From Pseudobdellovibrionaceae bacterium (lineage in GTDB: Bacteria; Pseudomonadota; Alphaproteobacteria; Micavibrionales; Micavibrionaceae), in assembly GCA_050251555.1 (NCBI GenBank), contig JBFWMN010000001.1:26806-90805 (forward strand): a DNA stretch of 64,000 nucleotides, given 5' to 3'. Below the pieces are notes generated by a model. It was not told the DNA's origin. It was given only the letters and a program-made list of their open reading frames with translations, and did not search any database. Positions 13,902 through 22,794 of this stretch are shown here, one piece after another. The first letter of the stretch is position 1; each line of letters begins with the position of its first letter. Made by a program: the position numbers and the translations under genes.

Positions 13902-14962
13902 GAGGTTTGAAAACGCTTCTGGTACTGTCACTGGCTGTTTTGCCGACAGCGTGTGCGAGTGAGAACAACGCCAATGTCCCTGTCTATTATTACGGGCAAG
14001 GGAAGGGGGCAGGCTCTACCGGTGCGCATGTCGCGATGATGGGCGATACGGTGGACACCATTGCGGCGCGCTATAATGTACCGCGCCTTGATTTGATCGA
14101 GCTCAATCATTTGGAACAGCCCTATACGCTGTTTGTCGGGCAGCGTTTACTGTTGCCCGCGCCGCGTACCTATACGGTCGGGCAGGATGACTCGGTGGCC
14201 TCCATCGCCAAAACATTCGGGACAAGCCCCGAAGAGTTGGCGCGTTTGAATAATCTGCAAGCGCCGTTTCGCCTGACATTGGGGCAAAAACTGGAAATTC
14301 CGGCACTTTCGGGCGCGGCAAACGATTCCGCCTCCATGGCTTATCTGACCCTTGAGCCACCCGTTCCCAAAGTTGAAGGTGCGGCGCTTGAGCCTTTGAA
14401 TACCTTCCCGCCAGCGATGGACACGCCGCCGCAAGGGCAACCCCTTCCTGCCGAGACACCGCCACCAACGCAGACAGCGTCCTTGCCGCAACCTGCCGTG
14501 CCTCAAGCCGTACCACCACCCCAAGCGCCACCCAAACCTGCGGGGCAGGCGATTGATGTCTCCAAAATTAAAGTCCCTGCAAGAGGGGGTGCCAAAATGG
14601 TGCGGCCCGTACAGGGGAATATTGCCTCCAGCTTCGGCCCGAAAGCCGATACGTTACAAAATGACGGCATCAATATTGTCGCGGTACGCGGGGCACCTGT
14701 CCGCGCTGCCGAAAACGGTGTTGTCATCTATGCGGGTGAGGATCTCGCCAGCTATGGCAAGCTGACCCTCGTGAAACATGAGGGCGGTCTGGTGACAGCC
14801 TATGCGCATCAGGACAAGTTTCTGGTGACAAAGGGCCAAGTGGTCAATCGCGGGCAGACCATCGGTACGGTGGGCTCAAGCGGGAATGTCCAGACCCCGC
14901 AACTTCATTTTGAAGTCCGTAAAGGCTCCAAGCCCGTTAATCCGACCGCTTATCTTGAGTAA
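13898..14962 (+). CDS. nlpD: LysM-LysM-dLytM (degenerate M23) lipoprotein, NlpD type
   Basis: Track ORF 13814..14962, with the start moved to ATG 13898, which overlaps the pcm stop (ATGA). It has a lipoprotein-like signal (...LAVLPTAC), two LysM repeats, a Pro-rich linker and a C-terminal M23 domain. In that domain HxxxD reads NDGIN and HxH reads QLH. This is the non-catalytic NlpD/EnvC-type pattern (E. coli NlpD, as I recall it: NKGID / RLH). Confidence 0.88.
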   Translation: MRGLKTLLVLSLAVLPTACASENNANVPVYYYGQGKGAGSTGAHVAMMGDTVDTIAARYNVPRLDLIELNHLEQPYTLFVGQRLLLPAPRTYTVGQDDSVASIAKTFGTSPEELARLNNLQAPFRLTLGQKLEIPALSGAANDSASMAYLTLEPPVPKVEGAALEPLNTFPPAMDTPPQGQPLPAETPPPTQTASLPQPAVPQAVPPPQAPPKPAGQAIDVSKIKVPARGGAKMVRPVQGNIASSFGPKADTLQNDGINIVAVRGAPVRAAENGVVIYAGEDLASYGKLTLVKHEGGLVTAYAHQDKFLVTKGQVVNRGQTIGTVGSSGNVQTPQLHFEVRKGSKPVNPTAYLE

Positions 14963-15090
14963 AACGAAGCCCTATACGTTGCCTTTTTCATGCAATGGCA
15001 TGATAAAGGTTTTTATAGGCACACGTGTTTCTGGCTCTTTCGCATAACTTTAGAAAATGTGACTTTGCAATAATTGACTCTTCAGAATTT
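14553..15090. repeat. Direct repeat copy 1: nlpD 3' end, terminator and downstream promoter region
   Basis: Hand alignment to 16266..16797. About 94 percent identical in the coding part, and 54/56 identical over the last 56 nt. Confidence 0.9.
14982..15014 (+). terminator. Rho-independent terminator of nlpD
   Basis: CCTTTTTCATGC-AATG-GCATGATAAAGG (12-bp stem, one mismatch) followed by TTTTTA, 20 nt after the nlpD stop. Confidence 0.6.
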
Positions 15091-15100
15091 GCGCTATAAG
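15074..15100 (+). promoter_or_regulatory. Candidate sigma70-type promoter for the 15138 gene
   Basis: TTGACT (15074-15079) and TATAAG (15095-15100), with a 15-16 nt spacer that is suboptimal. The -35 part lies inside a block conserved between both repeat copies. Confidence 0.25.
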
Positions 15101-15137
15101 TGTAAAGAAATCTTATACGCGCAGGGAAAAAATAAAA

Positions 15138-15905
15138 ATGCTTAACAGAGGCAATCGGTTAGCAAAGGCTTGGGGGTTTTTCAGGCTTTTTTTATTGTGT
15201 GTCTTGGCAGTATGTATCTTACCAACGCCGTCCAGTGCGATGGAATGTCTCCGCCGCCCCCCTTTAAGTGAGGCAATCAAAAACTCAGATGTCATCGTTA
15301 AAGTATTTGTAGATCATCAAAAATCCAAATCTCCTCTCGTTGTAGAACGTATCTACAAAGATAATTCAAAAAGTTTGAAAGAAGGCCAGAGAGTTTCTGC
15401 ATCAGAAGCCGGCGCACTTTTTTCAGGTTTTAACTATGAAGATGGAGAAGAATGGTTCATCTATGGGAACAAAACTGAGCGCGCATTTATCAAAAACGCC
15501 TGTGGACCAAGCTTTCTCACACCTGATTATTTGATCCATCATTTTGGGGAAACGTCTAAAACAGAATATTACCTCAAAAATGGCTATCTTGTTTTTACTG
15601 GAAAACTTTTAGATACAAGTGACGATCAGTTCCAGTTCCGAATAGAGAAGCTTCTTGGCGGTGGATACGAAAAAGCTGAAATTTCAATAATATTTAAAGA
15701 CCCAAAATGTTCTAAAAACTTTGAAAAAGACAAAGAATACTTTGTTATAGCCGGATCAAATAATATACCTACAGCTCCAAAATTTCTGGGTCAATGTACC
15801 AATTATTCACCTTATCCAACTGATTTAGAAAAAACTTTAAATGGCTTAAACCCTAGGAGTTCATTATGGCATTCACTGTCCCAACAAATTATGAAGTTCT
15901 TTTAA
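15138..15905 (+). CDS. Secreted hypothetical protein with two tandem TIMP/NTR-like modules (putative metalloprotease inhibitor; function is inferred)
   Basis: 255 aa with a signal-peptide-like N-terminus (...CILPTPSSA/MEC). It is a paralog of 16844..17680. C-LRRPPLSEAIKNSDVIVKV and KCSKNFEKDKEYFVIAG resemble the TIMP N-domain. It lies directly 5' of a serralysin-like ORF. Confidence 0.7.
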   Translation: MLNRGNRLAKAWGFFRLFLLCVLAVCILPTPSSAMECLRRPPLSEAIKNSDVIVKVFVDHQKSKSPLVVERIYKDNSKSLKEGQRVSASEAGALFSGFNYEDGEEWFIYGNKTERAFIKNACGPSFLTPDYLIHHFGETSKTEYYLKNGYLVFTGKLLDTSDDQFQFRIEKLLGGGYEKAEISIIFKDPKCSKNFEKDKEYFVIAGSNNIPTAPKFLGQCTNYSPYPTDLEKTLNGLNPRSSLWHSLSQQIMKFF

Positions 15906-16676
15906 CGTGGAACACGCCTGTAGACAATCCCAACTCTCTAGAAGATGAGTTTTTCAATTCCATTGGTGCCGTAGAGCCTTGGTCATGGACAGGATATTCC
16001 GGTACTAGTGCCACCATCAATTATAGCCTGCTAGCGGCAAACTCTTTTTTTGCAGGATCATCAATCCCATTTACCCCTACTTCCTCTACAGACTTACCTG
16101 CAACTGTGATTGCAATTCAACCTATCTTAAATTTGATAAAGAATGTCGCAAATGTAAGTTTTATAAATGATGATACAAATCCTGATTTTGTCATATCTAC
16201 TGTAAATACAACTTCCTACGCCGGTTTAGCAGTACCCTCAATAACAAACCAAGATGTATCTGTAGTTGATGTTTCCAAAATTAAAGTCCCTGCAAGGGGG
16301 GGGCGCAAAAATGGTGCGCCCCGTTCAGGGCAATATTGCCTCCGGCTTCGGGCCGAAAGCCGATACGTTACAAAATGACGGCATCAATATTGTCGCCGTG
16401 CGCGGGGCACCTGTCCGTGCTGCCGAAAACGGTGTTGTCATCTATGCGGGTGAGGATCTCGCCAGCTATGGCAAGTTGATCCTCGTGAAACATGAAGGCG
16501 GGCTGGTGACAGCCTACGCGCATCAGGATAAGTTTCTGGTGACAAAGGGTCAAGTGGTCAATCGCGGGCAGACCATCGGTACGGTGGGTTCAAGCGGGAA
16601 TGTCCAGACCCCGCAACTCCATTTTGAAGTCCGCAAAGGCTCCAAACCCGTTAATCCGACGACCTATCTTGAGTAA
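15866..16676 (+). pseudogene. Chimeric ORF: serralysin-like N-terminal fragment (about 133 codons) joined to a second copy of the nlpD dLytM domain, interrupted by a net +1 frameshift
   Basis: ORF 15866..16378 has AGGAG 6 nt upstream of its ATG. Its first 133 aa parallel the N-terminus of the 17715 protein (W-WTG, ILNLIKNVANVSF versus VLKLISNVANINF) but end before any HEXXH. From 16266 it enters the nlpD copy in frame (VDVSKIKVPARGG), then loses the frame at 16296-16311. The dLytM reading frame continues as track ORF 16266..16676. Confidence 0.75.
16296..16311 (+). other. G8 and A5 homopolymer tracts containing the net +1 nt relative to nlpD
   Basis: nlpD has GCAAGAGGGGGTGCCAAAATGG (24 nt through ATGGTG). 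The copy has GCAAGGGGGGGGCGCAAAAATGG (25 nt). Confidence 0.85.
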
Positions 16677-16688
16677 GAAGTGGCGTTG

Positions 16689-16724
16689 CCCTTTTCATGC
16701 AATGGCATGATAAAGTTTTATTTA
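16689..16724 (+). terminator. Copy of the nlpD terminator hairpin
   Basis: CTTTTCATGC-AATG-GCATGATAAAG followed by TTTTATTT. It is the same palindrome TCATGCAATGGCATGA seen in copy 1. Confidence 0.5.
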
Positions 16725-16843
16725 GTCACGCGTATTTCTGCCTCTTTCGCATAACTTTAGAAAATGTGACTTTGCAGTCATTGACTCTTCAGAATTTCAC
16801 CTTTAAGGCTAGAAATCCATACATACACGGGGGAACATTTCTT

Positions 16844-17680
16844 ATGCTCAAAAGAGCCAAAAGCATCTTCAAAAAATCGTCTCGCAAATCTTATGTATTG
16901 GCCTTGTTTATCGCGGTGCTATTAGTGGTGCTGTATAGCGGAATAAATATGTCTTCTGCTGACCGAGATCCGGATGCGCCGGGGTTTGACGGTCGCACTT
17001 CATTAGAATGGGCTCATGAACATTCAAGCTTAATCTTTTTAGGACGAATTCTGAGCGAGAAGCATCCATACGATGTTGAGGTTCTTGAAGTATTCAAGGA
17101 CTCAAAGAACAGGCTAGAAGGCAAGAAACATGTTCTGATTGAGCATGTTCTGTCGATGGGCGAATACTACCTTGGCGCACATAAAGATGAAGTACTCATC
17201 ATTTTTGCCGGATACGATGAAAAGAACAAAGCCATACGCGTTTCGGAGAGATCGCGCACGCAATATCCACCCCAATATTTTGTTAAACATATCCAAAATG
17301 CCAAGGGGCGTTGGGAAGGATGGAGCGACACTGAAAAATATACAGTCTTTGTCGGTACGGTCGATAAGATCATAAAATCCGAGGACAGGAAAGATACAGC
17401 AATCCTCTTCAAAGATGTTTCTCTTGTTTCAGGCTCGCTTGAAGGAGAGTCAACGGATCACTTGAACGTAAGCTTTCAATACGACGCGCGCTGTGCAGAT
17501 TTATACAAGGAAAAAAATCGATATGTTGTCTTTGTAAAGAAACAATACAAAACACTAGATACACGGGAAAACGGGAAGGAAAAACGCGTATTTCAAAAAT
17601 TCAACAGTACTTATTGCGCTTTATATCAACCATATGACTTTGACATCTTAGAAAAACTGCGTAATTGGAAAGTTAAATAA
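16844..17680 (+). CDS. Membrane-anchored or exported hypothetical protein, paralog of 15138..15905 (tandem TIMP/NTR-like pattern; putative metalloprotease inhibitor)
   Basis: Track ORF 16697..17680. The upstream 49 codons are the repeat/promoter region, so I start at ATG 16844 (MLKRAKSIFKK..., GGGGGA 9 nt upstream). It has an N-terminal hydrophobic anchor, YVLALFIAVLLVVLY. It lies 34 nt upstream of the RTX protease gene. Confidence 0.7.
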   Translation: MLKRAKSIFKKSSRKSYVLALFIAVLLVVLYSGINMSSADRDPDAPGFDGRTSLEWAHEHSSLIFLGRILSEKHPYDVEVLEVFKDSKNRLEGKKHVLIEHVLSMGEYYLGAHKDEVLIIFAGYDEKNKAIRVSERSRTQYPPQYFVKHIQNAKGRWEGWSDTEKYTVFVGTVDKIIKSEDRKDTAILFKDVSLVSGSLEGESTDHLNVSFQYDARCADLYKEKNRYVVFVKKQYKTLDTRENGKEKRVFQKFNSTYCALYQPYDFDILEKLRNWKVK

Positions 17681-17714
17681 AAAAATATCAAATTTTGCAC
17701 GTGGGGTAGCAGAT

Positions 17715-20700
17715 ATGACTTGGACAATTAATCCTGATGATCTCGACGATAATGTTGAAAAACTTTTTGTATGGCCTGAGTATGGGTTGTTTTCGTGGAC
17801 AGGTCAGCTTGGTGCTACAGCAAATGTAACTTTTACGCTTAATCCCAGTTCCCTCCACCCCGGCTCATCAGGCCAACCCACATCTTCTGTTTCTTGGGGG
17901 GATGCAGGTCAAACAGCGGCGTTTGCAGATGACATATCAGATGTTTTGAAATTGATCTCGAATGTAGCAAATATCAACTTCACATACTCTACATCTGCTT
18001 CAGTCAACGATATAGCTTTTGCTCTTGCGGATAAAGATACGTTTATATACACAGACACTGAAGACAATGAATATCCCATAGCAGGTCACGCATATACCCC
18101 AACCCCTTATTCCAACCAAACGACGGGGTATGCAGATATATATTTTTCTGATTATTATGATGATTTTAGTGTAGGCTCTAGAGGCAGCTCAACCTTGCTT
18201 CATGAGGTTTTACACGCCTTAGGAATAAGCCACCCTAACGGTGTTCCTGATGATGACGATTTCAACAAAATAAGCACGGTCATGAGCGATGTGCCCTCCG
18301 GTATAGCTGATCCCAACTTGGTAACAGATGAATTTCGTTCCGATAACAGTTACGCGCCAGCTACCCTTATGCCCTATGATATTGCGGCGCTGCAATATTT
18401 GTATGGTGTCAACAACACATATAATGCAAATGATAATGTCTACATATTCCATCAAAACGGAACGATTTCTATTTCAAATCCTCAAAATTCTGAAGCAACA
18501 ATTGTCGGTAATCTGGTTGCAATTTGGGATGCTGGTGGTGACAATGATGAATATAAGCTGGATGCCACTATAATAGCGGACTCAAGAATAGATTTGAGAG
18601 CAGGCGCTGTTGCAGAAGAGGATCAGTATTATAAAGATCACACGAATATGAAGGTTTATGCTTCTCATATTGCATTCTCCGATGGAACCTCTCTTACGGT
18701 GGCTAATTCACTACCCGTGAGTGGCGTTGACCCACTCATTGAAAATGCAACGGGAGCACAAGGCAAAGACACTATCATTGGAAATGATAAGGCAAACATC
18801 CTTAAAGGTGAGGGTGGGGGCGATACCCTTGTTGGTGGTGCTGGCGTAGATACTTTATTCGGTGGAGCAGGTAACGATACGTTTATAGCTCATGTTGGGG
18901 TTTCAGGTCTTGACGGTGATTCCTATTATGGAGGTGACGAAAATTCTAGGGGGGAAGCTGATGGCATTGATACGGTTGATTATAGTGCAATAGACTCTGA
19001 TGCCTATGGCATAGCCAAAGTAAATATAGGTACAGGCGAGGACGTTGTCTGGTTTTACAAAAAAGATTTTTTATCGGATGGCAGCCTTGTATTTGGAGCA
19101 AAAGATTATCTCTACTCGATTGAAAATATTGTTTTTGGCGGAGATGTTATTTCTCTGGTAAATGGAACAGATGGAAATGACACACTGAATGATACAGATT
19201 ACTATATTTTAGAGATTCTATACGGTGGGCTGGGTGACGATGACATAAGCTTAGGCTACAATGATATCGCAGATGGTGGGGATGATAATGATACTTTCCA
19301 TACTTCCTTAGATTCATTAGCTGTATCTGGATATGGCGAAGCACAAATTCTTGGCGGGTCAGGGACCGACACTTTGGATTTGGTTATTGATAGCTCTTAC
19401 AGTACCTCAAATGCAGCTAAGTCAGAAAACGTATTTATTTCAAAAAGCCAAGGTGTGATCTCTGTCAGTGGTGCTTACACTTTAGTGCAAGCAAAAGACG
19501 TGGAAACCATCACTTTTACTGCAAGCGATACCAGATACAAGTCTCCGTTGTTACTGGCTAATCAGTTTGGCAGCGGCAATCTAAACTACGGAGATATCAC
19601 GAGCGGCACCATCAACGGTTTCACGGGGTTAAACCGTCTGGATTACTCATCTTCGTCCAGCGGAATGACGTATTCATCTACCCTGTCCGGATCTCACACT
19701 ATACTGACAAACAGCCTGTCTCAATCGGCTGTCAATGTAACAGAACTGTATGGCACCAACAAAGGTGACTACATCACTTTGCAAGACAGTACAAACACTC
19801 GCGTGTATCTGGGAACGGGTGATGACACGCTGATTTTAAATAATGCAAGTACATCTTATGGGTATGTCGTCGGGTACAGCGGTGGCGATGATCTTATCCA
19901 GTCCACCGGCTATTCTTACGGGGCAAGTCTTATTATTCAAGTCGATAAAAATATCACACTTTCGGACTTAGTTAGTATTACGCCAGAGTCAGGCGTTAAT
20001 TATAACGACCCGTTTGAAGTCGTTTTTGATTTCGGCAGCAAAGGTTCTCTGACCATCTCTGCATTTACAAAGAACTCGACCTTATCCATTAACGATCCAG
20101 CTAATGACAGAGAAGCCTACCTTAAATTCAATTACGGATACAACAACACTACTGAACTATACGACCCATTTCTAACCACCTCATATACAGCCTATTCCAC
20201 TTCAAAAGAGTTTACATTCAGAGGGACGTGGGATGATGACGTCATTCACGGCACATCTGCAAGAGACTCAATTTGGGCTCTTGGTGGTAACGATACCGTT
20301 TATGGTAGCGACAATGACGATTACATCTATGGCGGCGATGGCAATGATATCCTAGTCGGCGAAGAAGGAACCGACCATATTTATGGTGGTGCGGGAGGTG
20401 ACACAATCTACGCTGAAGATCAGAGCACAACACCAACGACAATTTCTTTTAACTGGCTATACGCAGGTGATGGTGATGACACTGTTTACGGCAGTCAGGG
20501 AGGCGATTATGTGGAAGGTGGTAATGGCGATGATGTCATATATGTCTTCGGCGGCTCTAATACAGTCTACGCTGGTAACGGCAATGATATTCTTCAAGGC
20601 GCTTTTAATGAAGTTTATGGCGGCGACGGTGATGATACCATCACAGCAGAGGGCAGCTCTTATTATGTTAACGGTGATTCTGGCAACGACATCATTCACA

Positions 20701-22652
20701 TTGTAGGCACTGCAGCATATGTCTATGGCGGCGACGGTGATGATGTCATATATGGGGCGGTCGATAATGAGGACTCCCGCATATATGGGGATGATGGGAA
20801 TGATATCATCTTTGGTCGCGGAGGAAATGACACCCTGTATGGTGGTAATGGGGATGATTTCTTGTATTCAAACACGGATAGCTCATTTGCATCTGACGCT
20901 GGGGATTTTGTTCTTCTATACGGAGAAGATGGCAATGACTTTATTCAAGGTGCAGATGGCGCTGATTATGCCTCCGGTGGCGCAGGTAGTGATATTCTCA
21001 AAGGCGGCAATGGCGGAGACACCCTATCAGGTGACGATGGAGACGATCAGCTATTTGGGGAAGATGGAAATGATAACATAAGCGGCGACGAGGGAGATGA
21101 TCTCTTATACGGCGGAGCAGGTAATGACACACTTGAAGGCGGTTTGGGTTACGACATTCTGATTGGTGGGGCTGGGAATGACACCTTATATGGCGGAAAT
21201 AGTGCAGCCATATGGAATAGTAACTTATTCGTTTTTGAGAGTGGCTTTGGTCATGATACTGTCGATGACTTTGTTACCTCGCTTGATAAGATTGATCTGA
21301 CCGATTTTTCATCAATTTCAGATGTATCGCAATTGGATATTTATGTCTTCACCAACTCTTATGGATCGACAACGACGATTACCATAAGCGCGACGGAAAT
21401 TATCACTTTGTCGCATGAGCTGCGCTACGATAACATCTACACTCTAACAAACGATAATTTCATTTTTGCGCATCCGAGTACTGACTACGGTAACTCCAGC
21501 GATGACCTATTGATGGGCACATCGGGTGCCGATACACTCGATGGTCGTGCTGGGAATGATACTTTGGAGGGCCTTGGCGGGAATGACATTCTCACGGGTG
21601 GGGTAGGTTCTGACGTCTTTATCTACTCGGGTAGCTTTGGTAATGACACCATAACGGACTTCGAACTCAATATTGATAAGATTGATCTTTCTCAGATACA
21701 AGCCGTTGCCGGCTATAGCAACCTGATACTCTCTCAAGTTGGGTCTGATACTTTAATTAGCTTCTCAGGAACTTCAGACTCGATCCTTTTGGAGGGTATT
21801 AATAGATACAGTTTAAACAGTTCTCAGTTTAAATTCGGTACTTACGGCACTTCTGGCAATGATTATATCGAAGGCACGTCTGGTGATGACTCAATCTTTG
21901 GCCTTGGGGGCAGCGATGAAATCTATGGCCTTGGTGGAAATGACCGCGTTGAAGGTGGTGACCAGAATGACTGGGTTTACGGAGGCACTGGCAATGACAT
22001 TGTGAAAGGCAATGCCGGAAATGATGTTGTTGCAGGTGATGATGGAAATGACACCCTCTATGGGGGCATCGGACAAGATTACCTCTGGGGTAATAAAGGT
22101 AATGACACGCTCTATGGTGAAGCGGATATTGATGCTCTCAGAGGCATGGAAGGTGATGACATTCTATACGGTGGAGAGGGGAACGACAATTTGCGCGGCG
22201 ATGATGTTGACTCTCTTTCCAACTTTGCGGGTGCCGGTAACGACATCCTGTATGGCGGCGCGGGCAATGATAACCTCGAAGGCGGGGCAGGCGACGATAT
22301 CCTTGTCGGCGGCACTGGTGCAGATATTATGAACGGAAGCGCAGGTTCGGATACGTTCTACTATGAAGCTGCGGATATTGATGGTTCACGGGATGCAATA
22401 TATGGTTTTCAGGCTGGTATAGGTGGGGACATCATCGATATATCCGATGTTCTGCAATATGACAGCGCAACGGATAATCTGTCAGACTTCGTATTTCTTG
22501 TTCAAGGTGGCAGCTACACACGGATCAATATTGACATTGATGGTACGGGTACAAATTACAGTTCTCAGTCACTGGCACAACTTCAGGGCGTGACGGGCCT
22601 TAATCTTACTGACATGGTCAATAGCGGTAATCTGGTTGTTGAGGCGGCCTAA
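17715..22652 (+). CDS. Giant serralysin-family (M10B) zinc metalloprotease with multiple RTX Ca-binding repeat blocks and a type I secretion C-terminal domain
   Basis: 1645 aa. Metzincin motif HEVLHALGISHP with the Met-turn candidate STVMSD. Serralysin-type motifs LMPYDIAALQYLYGVN and AIWDAGGDNDEY. There are dozens of GGxGxDxUx nonapeptides in four blocks. The C-terminal GDIIDISDVL...FVFLV...TRINIDIDGTG...LAQLQGV...LVVEAA resembles the VC_A0849-type T1SS target domain. Confidence 0.9.
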   Translation: MTWTINPDDLDDNVEKLFVWPEYGLFSWTGQLGATANVTFTLNPSSLHPGSSGQPTSSVSWGDAGQTAAFADDISDVLKLISNVANINFTYSTSASVNDIAFALADKDTFIYTDTEDNEYPIAGHAYTPTPYSNQTTGYADIYFSDYYDDFSVGSRGSSTLLHEVLHALGISHPNGVPDDDDFNKISTVMSDVPSGIADPNLVTDEFRSDNSYAPATLMPYDIAALQYLYGVNNTYNANDNVYIFHQNGTISISNPQNSEATIVGNLVAIWDAGGDNDEYKLDATIIADSRIDLRAGAVAEEDQYYKDHTNMKVYASHIAFSDGTSLTVANSLPVSGVDPLIENATGAQGKDTIIGNDKANILKGEGGGDTLVGGAGVDTLFGGAGNDTFIAHVGVSGLDGDSYYGGDENSRGEADGIDTVDYSAIDSDAYGIAKVNIGTGEDVVWFYKKDFLSDGSLVFGAKDYLYSIENIVFGGDVISLVNGTDGNDTLNDTDYYILEILYGGLGDDDISLGYNDIADGGDDNDTFHTSLDSLAVSGYGEAQILGGSGTDTLDLVIDSSYSTSNAAKSENVFISKSQGVISVSGAYTLVQAKDVETITFTASDTRYKSPLLLANQFGSGNLNYGDITSGTINGFTGLNRLDYSSSSSGMTYSSTLSGSHTILTNSLSQSAVNVTELYGTNKGDYITLQDSTNTRVYLGTGDDTLILNNASTSYGYVVGYSGGDDLIQSTGYSYGASLIIQVDKNITLSDLVSITPESGVNYNDPFEVVFDFGSKGSLTISAFTKNSTLSINDPANDREAYLKFNYGYNNTTELYDPFLTTSYTAYSTSKEFTFRGTWDDDVIHGTSARDSIWALGGNDTVYGSDNDDYIYGGDGNDILVGEEGTDHIYGGAGGDTIYAEDQSTTPTTISFNWLYAGDGDDTVYGSQGGDYVEGGNGDDVIYVFGGSNTVYAGNGNDILQGAFNEVYGGDGDDTITAEGSSYYVNGDSGNDIIHIVGTAAYVYGGDGDDVIYGAVDNEDSRIYGDDGNDIIFGRGGNDTLYGGNGDDFLYSNTDSSFASDAGDFVLLYGEDGNDFIQGADGADYASGGAGSDILKGGNGGDTLSGDDGDDQLFGEDGNDNISGDEGDDLLYGGAGNDTLEGGLGYDILIGGAGNDTLYGGNSAAIWNSNLFVFESGFGHDTVDDFVTSLDKIDLTDFSSISDVSQLDIYVFTNSYGSTTTITISATEIITLSHELRYDNIYTLTNDNFIFAHPSTDYGNSSDDLLMGTSGADTLDGRAGNDTLEGLGGNDILTGGVGSDVFIYSGSFGNDTITDFELNIDKIDLSQIQAVAGYSNLILSQVGSDTLISFSGTSDSILLEGINRYSLNSSQFKFGTYGTSGNDYIEGTSGDDSIFGLGGSDEIYGLGGNDRVEGGDQNDWVYGGTGNDIVKGNAGNDVVAGDDGNDTLYGGIGQDYLWGNKGNDTLYGEADIDALRGMEGDDILYGGEGNDNLRGDDVDSLSNFAGAGNDILYGGAGNDNLEGGAGDDILVGGTGADIMNGSAGSDTFYYEAADIDGSRDAIYGFQAGIGGDIIDISDVLQYDSATDNLSDFVFLVQGGSYTRINIDIDGTGTNYSSQSLAQLQGVTGLNLTDMVNSGNLVVEAA
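18201..18236 (+). other. Zinc-binding active-site motif HEVLHALGISHP (HEXXHXXGXXH)
   Basis: Read from the DNA: cat gag gtt tta cac gcc tta gga ata agc cac cct, in frame with 17715 (residue 163). Confidence 0.9.
20251..21200 (+). repeat. Main RTX nonapeptide repeat block (coding)
   Basis: Runs from GGNDTVYGSDNDDYIYGGDGNDILVGEEGTDHIYGGAGGDTIY to GGAGNDTLYGG. Smaller blocks lie at about 18748-18893 and about 21500-21640. Confidence 0.85.
21845..22362 (+). repeat. C-terminal RTX nonapeptide repeat block (coding)
   Basis: Runs from GTSGNDYIEGTSGDDSIFGLGGSDEIYGLGGNDRVEGG to GGTGADIMNGSAGSDTFYY. Confidence 0.85.
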
Positions 22653-22699
22653 AGACATAACTCCCTTCTTTGCAATGTTATCCCCCGTGATTGGCTGGC

Positions 22700-22723
22700 G
22701 GGGCAGGCTGCCCCCTTGTATTT
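22700..22723 (+). terminator. Weak candidate terminator after the RTX gene
   Basis: GGGGCA-GGC-TGCCCC followed by CTTGTATTT. The stem is short and the loop only 3 nt. Confidence 0.3.
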
Positions 22724-22794
22724 GCAAGGGAACGGGCTATAGTCGCCTGCAATGAATTCTGACACGTATAATTGATAAGGAAGACGATAAAGAG

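Follow-up and report, generated by a model that had tools for sequence, protein, structure and literature searches.

A broken protease–nlpD chimeric reading frame at the joint of two tandem protease cassettes, a probable scar of recombination behind nlpD

A reading frame that starts as a protease gene and runs on into a second copy of the 3′ end of nlpD lies at positions 15866–16676 of the stretch of Pseudobdellovibrionaceae DNA analyzed here (64,000 nt, hereafter the window, to which all coordinates refer). The assembly is a draft of 97 contigs, 1.89 Mb in total and 92% complete, and is probably a metagenome bin. The locus has the order nlpD, X_A, protease_A(1–132)::nlpD(244–382), X_B, protease_B, yajC, where X_A and X_B denote genes for exported proteins, and all the features fall on the (+) strand. 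The chimeric frame occupies the left edge of a direct repeat exactly, and it is broken within a run of eight G residues (the G8 tract). The features are as follows, in the order of their coordinates.

14553–15145 (+): R1, the 3′ end of the resident nlpD (stop codon at 14962) and, as far as the opening codons of X_A, the island-side intergenic region; direct repeat with R2.
15138–15905 (+): X_A, exported 255-aa protein of cassette A, from the list of open reading frames (ORFs); distant homolog of X_B and of a 272-aa gene on the contig L029.
15855–15859 (+): AGGAG, Shine-Dalgarno (SD) sequence 6 nt upstream of ATG 15866, read from the sequence.
15866–16378 (+): frameshifted ORF of 170 aa, from the ORF list; TGA at 16376–16378 is its stop codon.
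15866–16261 (+): protease stub of 132 codons, homologous to the N-terminus, ahead of HEXXH, of M10/RTX (serralysin-like) proteases (BLASTP, phmmer and family alignment).
16262–16273 (+): junction zone GTA GTT GAT GTT (V V D V), from alignments with the nlpD of contig L028 and with the protease family.
16266–16676 (+): coding part of R2, nlpD codons about 246–382, with a degenerate LytM/M23 domain (repeat alignment and Pfam).
16296–16303 (+): G8 tract with the frame-shifting extra G, from comparison with the resident nlpD and L028.
16311–16676 (+): open frame of 121 codons from an internal ATG in the nlpD frame, encoding the LytM domain only, with no signal peptide (ORF list and Pfam).
16677–16850 (+): intergenic part of R2, a conserved promoter-like block ending just inside X_B, whose ATG is at 16844 (repeat alignment).
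16844–17680 (+): X_B, exported 278-aa protein of cassette B (ORF list).
17715–22652 (+): P_B, intact serralysin-like RTX protease of 1645 aa, cassette B (ORF list, Pfam and structure matches).
22678–22794 (+): native nlpD–yajC spacer; the island ends on the right at, or immediately ahead of, 22678 (alignment with L028).

The preliminary description of this DNA had credited the ORF at 15866 with a good SD sequence and with a front portion that parallels the protease N-terminus ahead of HEXXH. Both statements were correct: AGGAG stands 6 nt before the ATG, and BLASTP and phmmer detected the homology over 132 codons. The stub is 29% identical to P_B (BLASTP, E=1e-5). In a phmmer search of 1.84 billion representative proteins, its best relatives were the N-termini of long M10/RTX proteins, including P0002 (3000 aa), P0005 (1052 aa) and the fragment P0001, and none of the relatives exceeded 42% identity. 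Alignment of the family showed that the stub retains the motifs SWTG and NVAN-F and that it is cut about 20–25 residues ahead of the HEXXH helix of the other members. The stub lacks both the zinc-binding helix HEXXHXXGXXH and the Met-turn of the M10B proteases; the C-terminal RTX repeats and the secretion signal for the type I secretion system (T1SS) are missing as well, the DNA past codon 132 being derived from nlpD. No Pfam family matched the stub, the homology of which is confined to the N-terminal segment. P_B aligns to serralysin structures across the HEXXH helix (E=1.8e-10) and contains RTX repeats. When the whole assembly was searched, the catalytic domain of P_B matched P_B only, and the stub matched itself and P_B only. 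Thus, this 92%-complete genome lacks the remainder of protease_A.

From 16262/16266 onward, the protease frame passes in frame into codons about 244–382 of nlpD, as had been described, and it continues in the nlpD frame through VVDVSKIKVPARGG before the shift at the G8 tract. As an outgroup for the nlpD copy, we used the Logan contig L028, the closest outside sequence obtained, whose products are 77% (NlpD overall), 90% (the LytM part of NlpD) and 96% (Pcm) identical to those of the window. The joint reads GTA GTT GAT GTT; the corresponding residues are (A/V)-D-(I/V) in the protease family and V-V-D-V (VVDVSK) in the outgroup NlpD. Judged from these sequences, up to about 11 nt may have been shared by the two parents at the joint, providing a candidate microhomology.

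The copy belongs to a repeat of 0.55 kb in total, which has 89–94% identity between R1 and R2 and was counted as beyond chance. A 300-nt segment (14585–14884 and 16299–16598) is 94% identical at the DNA level and the intergenic parts are 89% identical; exact stretches of more than 50 nt are shared, and the repeat ends just past the ATG of the X gene in both copies. Neither the genome nor the loci fetched for comparison contained an additional copy of the intergenic block or of the junction. In both intergenic copies, a perfect hairpin, TCATGC-AATG-GCATGA, lies just after the nlpD stop codon (14990–15005 and 16690–16705), and a near-invariant block, CTCTTTCGCATAACTTTAGAAAATGTGACTTTGCA, lies further 3′. 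These elements are probably the promoter or operator of the X–protease operons. Scans for sigma-70 promoters and terminators gave no more sites than shuffled sequence, and a comparison of the repeat and the intergenic region with Rfam returned no match to a structured RNA at E≤1.

The nlpD frame of the copy is open from ATG 16311 to 16676 and contains a complete M23 domain (Pfam Peptidase_M23, PF01551, E=3e-31). This domain is of the non-catalytic form, as the preliminary description had recognized: NDGIN replaces HxxxD and QLH replaces HxH in the resident gene and in the copy alike. The same degenerate state of the motifs has been described for NlpD and EnvC (PMC8416486; PMC5533458). The copy has neither the lipoprotein signal for export nor the LysM domains for targeting, both of which are encoded upstream, in the resident nlpD only. 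Residues specific to the copy are the G at ASGFG and the I at KLILV, and PTTYLE also contains copy-specific sequence.

The frame break had been attributed to a net gain of one nucleotide in the G8 and A5 homopolymers. Comparison with the other two sequences assigned it to a single extra G in the G8 tract and acquitted the A5 run. The tract reads AGA GGC GGC GCA AAA ATG in the outgroup, AGA GGG GGT GCC AAA ATG in the resident nlpD and AGG GGG GGG C GCA AAA ATG in the copy. Since the outgroup also has GCA AAA ATG, the A5 run is ancestral and was not involved, GCC of the resident gene being the derived state. With one G removed, the copy encodes ARGGAKM, in agreement with the resident gene and the outgroup. 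The change of AGA to AGG, which merges the G residues, and the added G may represent one mutational event or two. The product of read-through would have 269 residues, rather than the approximately 255 given originally. The G8 tract is the sole G/C homopolymer of length 8 in the assembly, in which 19 runs have a length of 7. It ends 7 nt upstream of ATG 16311, and the preliminary description had regarded it as an SD-like element for this start codon. The run proved to consist of inherited Arg-Gly-Gly codons common to the resident gene and the outgroup, and the idea of internal initiation therefore gains nothing from it.

To place the chimera in its genomic setting, we compared the gene order with that of relatives. 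The order pcm-nlpD-yajC, in which about 116 nt separate nlpD from yajC, is found in L028 and in three genomes of the same genus, and it is the ancestral order. In the window, alignment with L028 showed that the native spacer (TTATCCCC at 22678) resumes directly after the P_B gene. Because the relatives have nlpD followed by yajC and because the native spacer resumes at 22678, the DNA between 14962 and about 22677 is a lineage-specific island. It spans 7.7 kb (14963–22677), begins directly after the nlpD stop codon and is accompanied by a fall in GC content from about 0.55 to 0.36–0.47 across 15.0–22.6 kb. The island comprises two units, each consisting of an intergenic block, an exported X protein of 255–278 aa and a protease, which is the stub in one unit and P_B in the other. 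The X proteins had no match among Pfam families. On the unrelated contig L029 (5186–9159), a 272-aa ORF overlaps the start of a gene for a 1052-aa M10/RTX protease; its product is 28% identical to X_B (E=8e-9) and is also related to X_A (E=5e-5). This pair adjoins genes for an integrase, TraG/type IV secretion system components and LmuB-like defence proteins. The homologous pair on L029 indicates that X and the protease form a conserved, transferable two-gene module.

Some further observations concern the layout of the island. X_A overlaps the start of the stub by 40 nt (15866–15905) and extends about 19 residues beyond the end point of X_B, while the counterpart genes of cassette B are 34 nt apart; the original stop codon of X_A may have been lost. 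The 18 nt to the left of the native spacer (22660–22677) match the last codons of the L028 nlpD at 9 of 18 positions (TCCTTCTTTG versus TCCTACTTGG), and they could be a degraded third remnant of an nlpD end or a chance match. Site-specific integration of the island was considered and rejected: it contains no tRNA gene, integrase gene or other mobility gene. The island also matched no Rfam family.

The extent of divergence differs greatly between the parts of the two units. X_A and X_B have about 20% protein identity, against the 89–94% DNA identity of the repeats. A simple tandem duplication is ruled out because repeats so similar flank X proteins with about 20% identity and proteases (stub and P_B) with 29%. 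We then compared the nlpD copy with the resident gene codon by codon. With the extra G left out, the whole copy differs from the resident sequence by 23 synonymous and 3 non-synonymous single-base changes (dN/dS, the ratio of non-synonymous to synonymous divergence, 0.037; dS 0.27). The 121 codons that run from Met (14597 and 16311) to the stop contain 18 synonymous differences, and 3 non-synonymous codons account for 4 base differences (dN/dS 0.045; dS 0.25). The synonymous-only pattern also extends to the 15 codons that precede the internal ATG. When the changes were polarized with L028, 7 synonymous and 2–3 non-synonymous changes fell on the branch of the copy (P=0.0013–0.0035 for so few non-synonymous changes under neutrality), and 13 synonymous and no polarizable non-synonymous changes fell on the resident branch. 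L028 is distant from both copies (dS above 1), such that some of these polarizations may be wrong, but the contrast between synonymous and non-synonymous changes is independent of them. This near-purely synonymous divergence, including that upstream of the ATG, suggests that the copy diverged inside an nlpD that was full-length and working, and that its idle period has been short. Going by these sequence comparisons, the simplest source would be the nlpD of a sister lineage in which the same intergenic block preceded a different cassette.

Taken together, these results support the proposal of the preliminary description that the frame is a recombination scar or pseudogene, since the chimera lies at a novel joint between two stacked cassettes, in an island without counterpart in the relatives. 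We consider it probable, at roughly 0.7, that the 15866–16676 frame is a non-functional junction pseudogene left by cassette stacking. In the events that we envisage, DNA of a sister lineage having the same nlpD–intergenic left flank (dS about 0.27) and a very different cassette would have met the resident locus. One homologous crossover, placed either in the nlpD/intergenic DNA or, if the scheme is mirrored, downstream of the cassette, would have been combined with one illegitimate join at microhomology (GTnGTTGATGT), connecting protease codon about 133 to nlpD codon about 244. A circularized fragment integrated by a single crossover (Campbell-type) would give the same product as homology-facilitated illegitimate recombination (HFIR), and the imported repeat could be either R1 or R2. 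That the joint is in frame would have a chance of 1 in 3, so that selection need not be invoked, and the two copy-specific amino acid changes together with the extra G would be the expected yield of a short unconstrained period.

Several points weigh against this interpretation. The argument for import is built on patterns of divergence only, because no sister strain or donor lineage was found. We searched metagenome, genome and protein collections for such a lineage and found none: the stub protein had no match in metagenome contigs and a single match in genome contigs, a 40%-identical fragment from a metagenome-assembled genome of the Steroidobacteraceae; an exact 23-mer common to both repeats had no match in metagenome contigs; and look-ups of the exact 170-aa product and of P0001 returned no record. 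The low dN/dS would be equally expected if the copy were under selection at its present site. The stub is still a clean open frame of 132 codons with a good SD sequence in DNA of 37% GC, which fits recency but also retention. Finally, both the length of the tract and the tandem structure are taken from a single draft assembly.

As for the products that the locus could yield, a truncated protein of 170 aa may be made from the good SD sequence. It would be functionless, because the catalytic helix and any export signal are lacking and its LytM domain is incomplete, with the greater part of that domain missing; nor does it include a signal peptide or the RTX/T1SS part. The earlier statement that the fusion would have neither a Sec signal nor a T1SS C-terminus was confirmed on reading the sequence. 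The 269-aa read-through product or an internal 121-aa product would, as predicted from these features, strand a periplasmic activator domain in the cytoplasm. Among the hits of a search of 5.8 billion protein clusters, none had the stub::LytM architecture, and the best hits spanned the LytM half only.

The low dN/dS bears most directly on an alternative in which the 121-codon frame from ATG 16311 is a stand-alone, functional LytM gene that uses the G run as its SD sequence and is under purifying selection in place. A ratio of 0.04 between the copies, a significantly non-neutral copy branch and an open frame holding a complete M23 domain, with the G run 7 nt before the ATG, all agree with such a gene. 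However, the protein would have no signal peptide or lipobox, leaving an amidase-activator domain of the periplasm in the cytoplasm, and the G-rich element is inherited, being present in the resident gene and L028 as well. Selection acting on this frame does not predict the synonymous-only pattern upstream of the ATG, and both of the polarizable non-synonymous changes lie on the copy branch. We therefore regard a stand-alone gene as unlikely.

The extra G could instead be an error of sequencing or assembly, the true tract being G7 and the gene an intact fusion of 269 aa in which a protease N-terminus precedes a degenerate LytM domain. Homopolymers are the commonest sites of indels in consensus sequences, this tract exceeds every other G/C run of the assembly in length, and without the extra G the copy reads exactly as the resident gene and the outgroup do. 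Against an error, indel errors appear to be rare in this assembly, because the long ORFs of the window (1645, 911, 832 and 780 aa) are uninterrupted. An intact fusion, too, would have neither catalytic site nor export signal, and its architecture was not among the hits of the cluster search. An error at the tract is thus improbable.

Another alternative keeps the tandem duplication but makes it old: a segment from nlpD codon 244 through X to protease codon 133 would have been duplicated in situ, and gene conversion would later have homogenized the repeat while X and the protease diverged. The topology, with the end of the segment joined to its start, is exactly that of a tandem duplication. 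Nevertheless, the divergence of X (about 20% identity) and of the stub from P_B (29%) needs far longer than a dS of 0.27 allows, and an idle copy should have gained mostly non-synonymous changes after conversion, which were not seen. We find this history very doubtful.

A related question is whether the second nlpD end has been selected for a role of its own, with a G7/G8 switch or ATG 16311 providing a cytoplasmic LytM protein, alone or fused to the protease pro-region, that serves the cassette. We hold this to be very unlikely; if true, it would be a new use of the degenerate LytM domain, for example as a cytoplasmic chaperone or regulator for the protease cassette. The specific version in which the G tract is a switch, toggling a functional fusion by phase variation between G7 and G8 or by +1 ribosomal or transcriptional slippage, is more doubtful still. 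A run of eight G residues is within the range of appreciable replication slippage, the tract is unique in the genome, and, on reading the sequence, tRNA-Gly can re-pair in the +1 frame on GGG GGG G. On the other hand, no stimulatory element accompanies the tract, which is followed by the common codon CGC and not by a stop or rare codon, and the genome contains no family of such tracts but this one 8-mer only; nor does the product have a plausible function or location, or the tract evidence of conservation.

The weakest alternative, that the assembler threaded two co-occurring strains with one cassette each into a tandem array, draws on the draft state of this 97-contig assembly and on the exact stretches of more than 50 nt in the repeats, but it is hardly credible, because the parents share at most about 11 nt at the joint, too short for a k-mer graph to bridge, so that the junction words presumably exist in the reads.

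On the reading of the frame as a recombination scar, the chimera alone is of little importance, and it should not be annotated as a protease–LytM fusion or as a phase-variable gene. What it would record is a dated footprint: sister lineages swap the protease cassettes located behind nlpD by recombination anchored at the nlpD 3′ end and the shared promoter region, and the outcome can be stacked cassettes instead of the replacement of one by another. It would also serve as an example of a pseudogene fragment whose divergence, almost all of it synonymous, points to recent import and not to function.

Poly-G contingency loci are known from Neisseria, Haemophilus and Campylobacter. The locus described here resembles them in having an in-frame G8 run whose length sets the frame. 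It differs from them in that the tract is single in the genome, with no paralogous tracts, lies in a junction fragment without a plausible product and is known from one assembly. Serralysin-family (M10B) RTX proteases can have an adjacent inhibitor gene, as in Serratia PrtA/Inh and Pseudomonas AprA/AprI. In both cassettes and on L029, the gene of a small exported protein likewise stands beside the protease gene, a likeness of position alone. Unlike the serralysin systems, the stub ends before the HEXXH helix and there are no adjacent T1SS genes. The comparison with E. coli NlpD and EnvC is closest in the M23 domain, which in the resident NlpD and in the copy has HxxxD and the first His of HxH replaced. 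In resident NlpD, the M23 domain is accompanied by two LysM domains and a lipoprotein-like signal; in contrast to the E. coli proteins, the copy is LytM only, with no signal peptide, LysM domain or linker, and is out of frame with the upstream ORF.

The nearest parallel lies in the junctions of HFIR and of Campbell-type integration. Homology-facilitated illegitimate recombination was reportedly described by de Vries and Wackernagel in 2002. The present case differs from documented HFIR, in which microhomologies of 3–10 bp are used (PMC6382021), in that it is deduced from one genome and in that its candidate microhomology may extend to 11 nt, which reaches or exceeds that range. In its layout, the locus has what such junctions have: a novel joint at short microhomology lies beside a homologous anchor (R1/R2), the anchor on one side being the nlpD 3′ end and intergenic region with 89–94% identity and the other side being the microhomology; the inserted DNA is flanked by direct copies of the homologous segment; and the joint carries a chimeric ORF.

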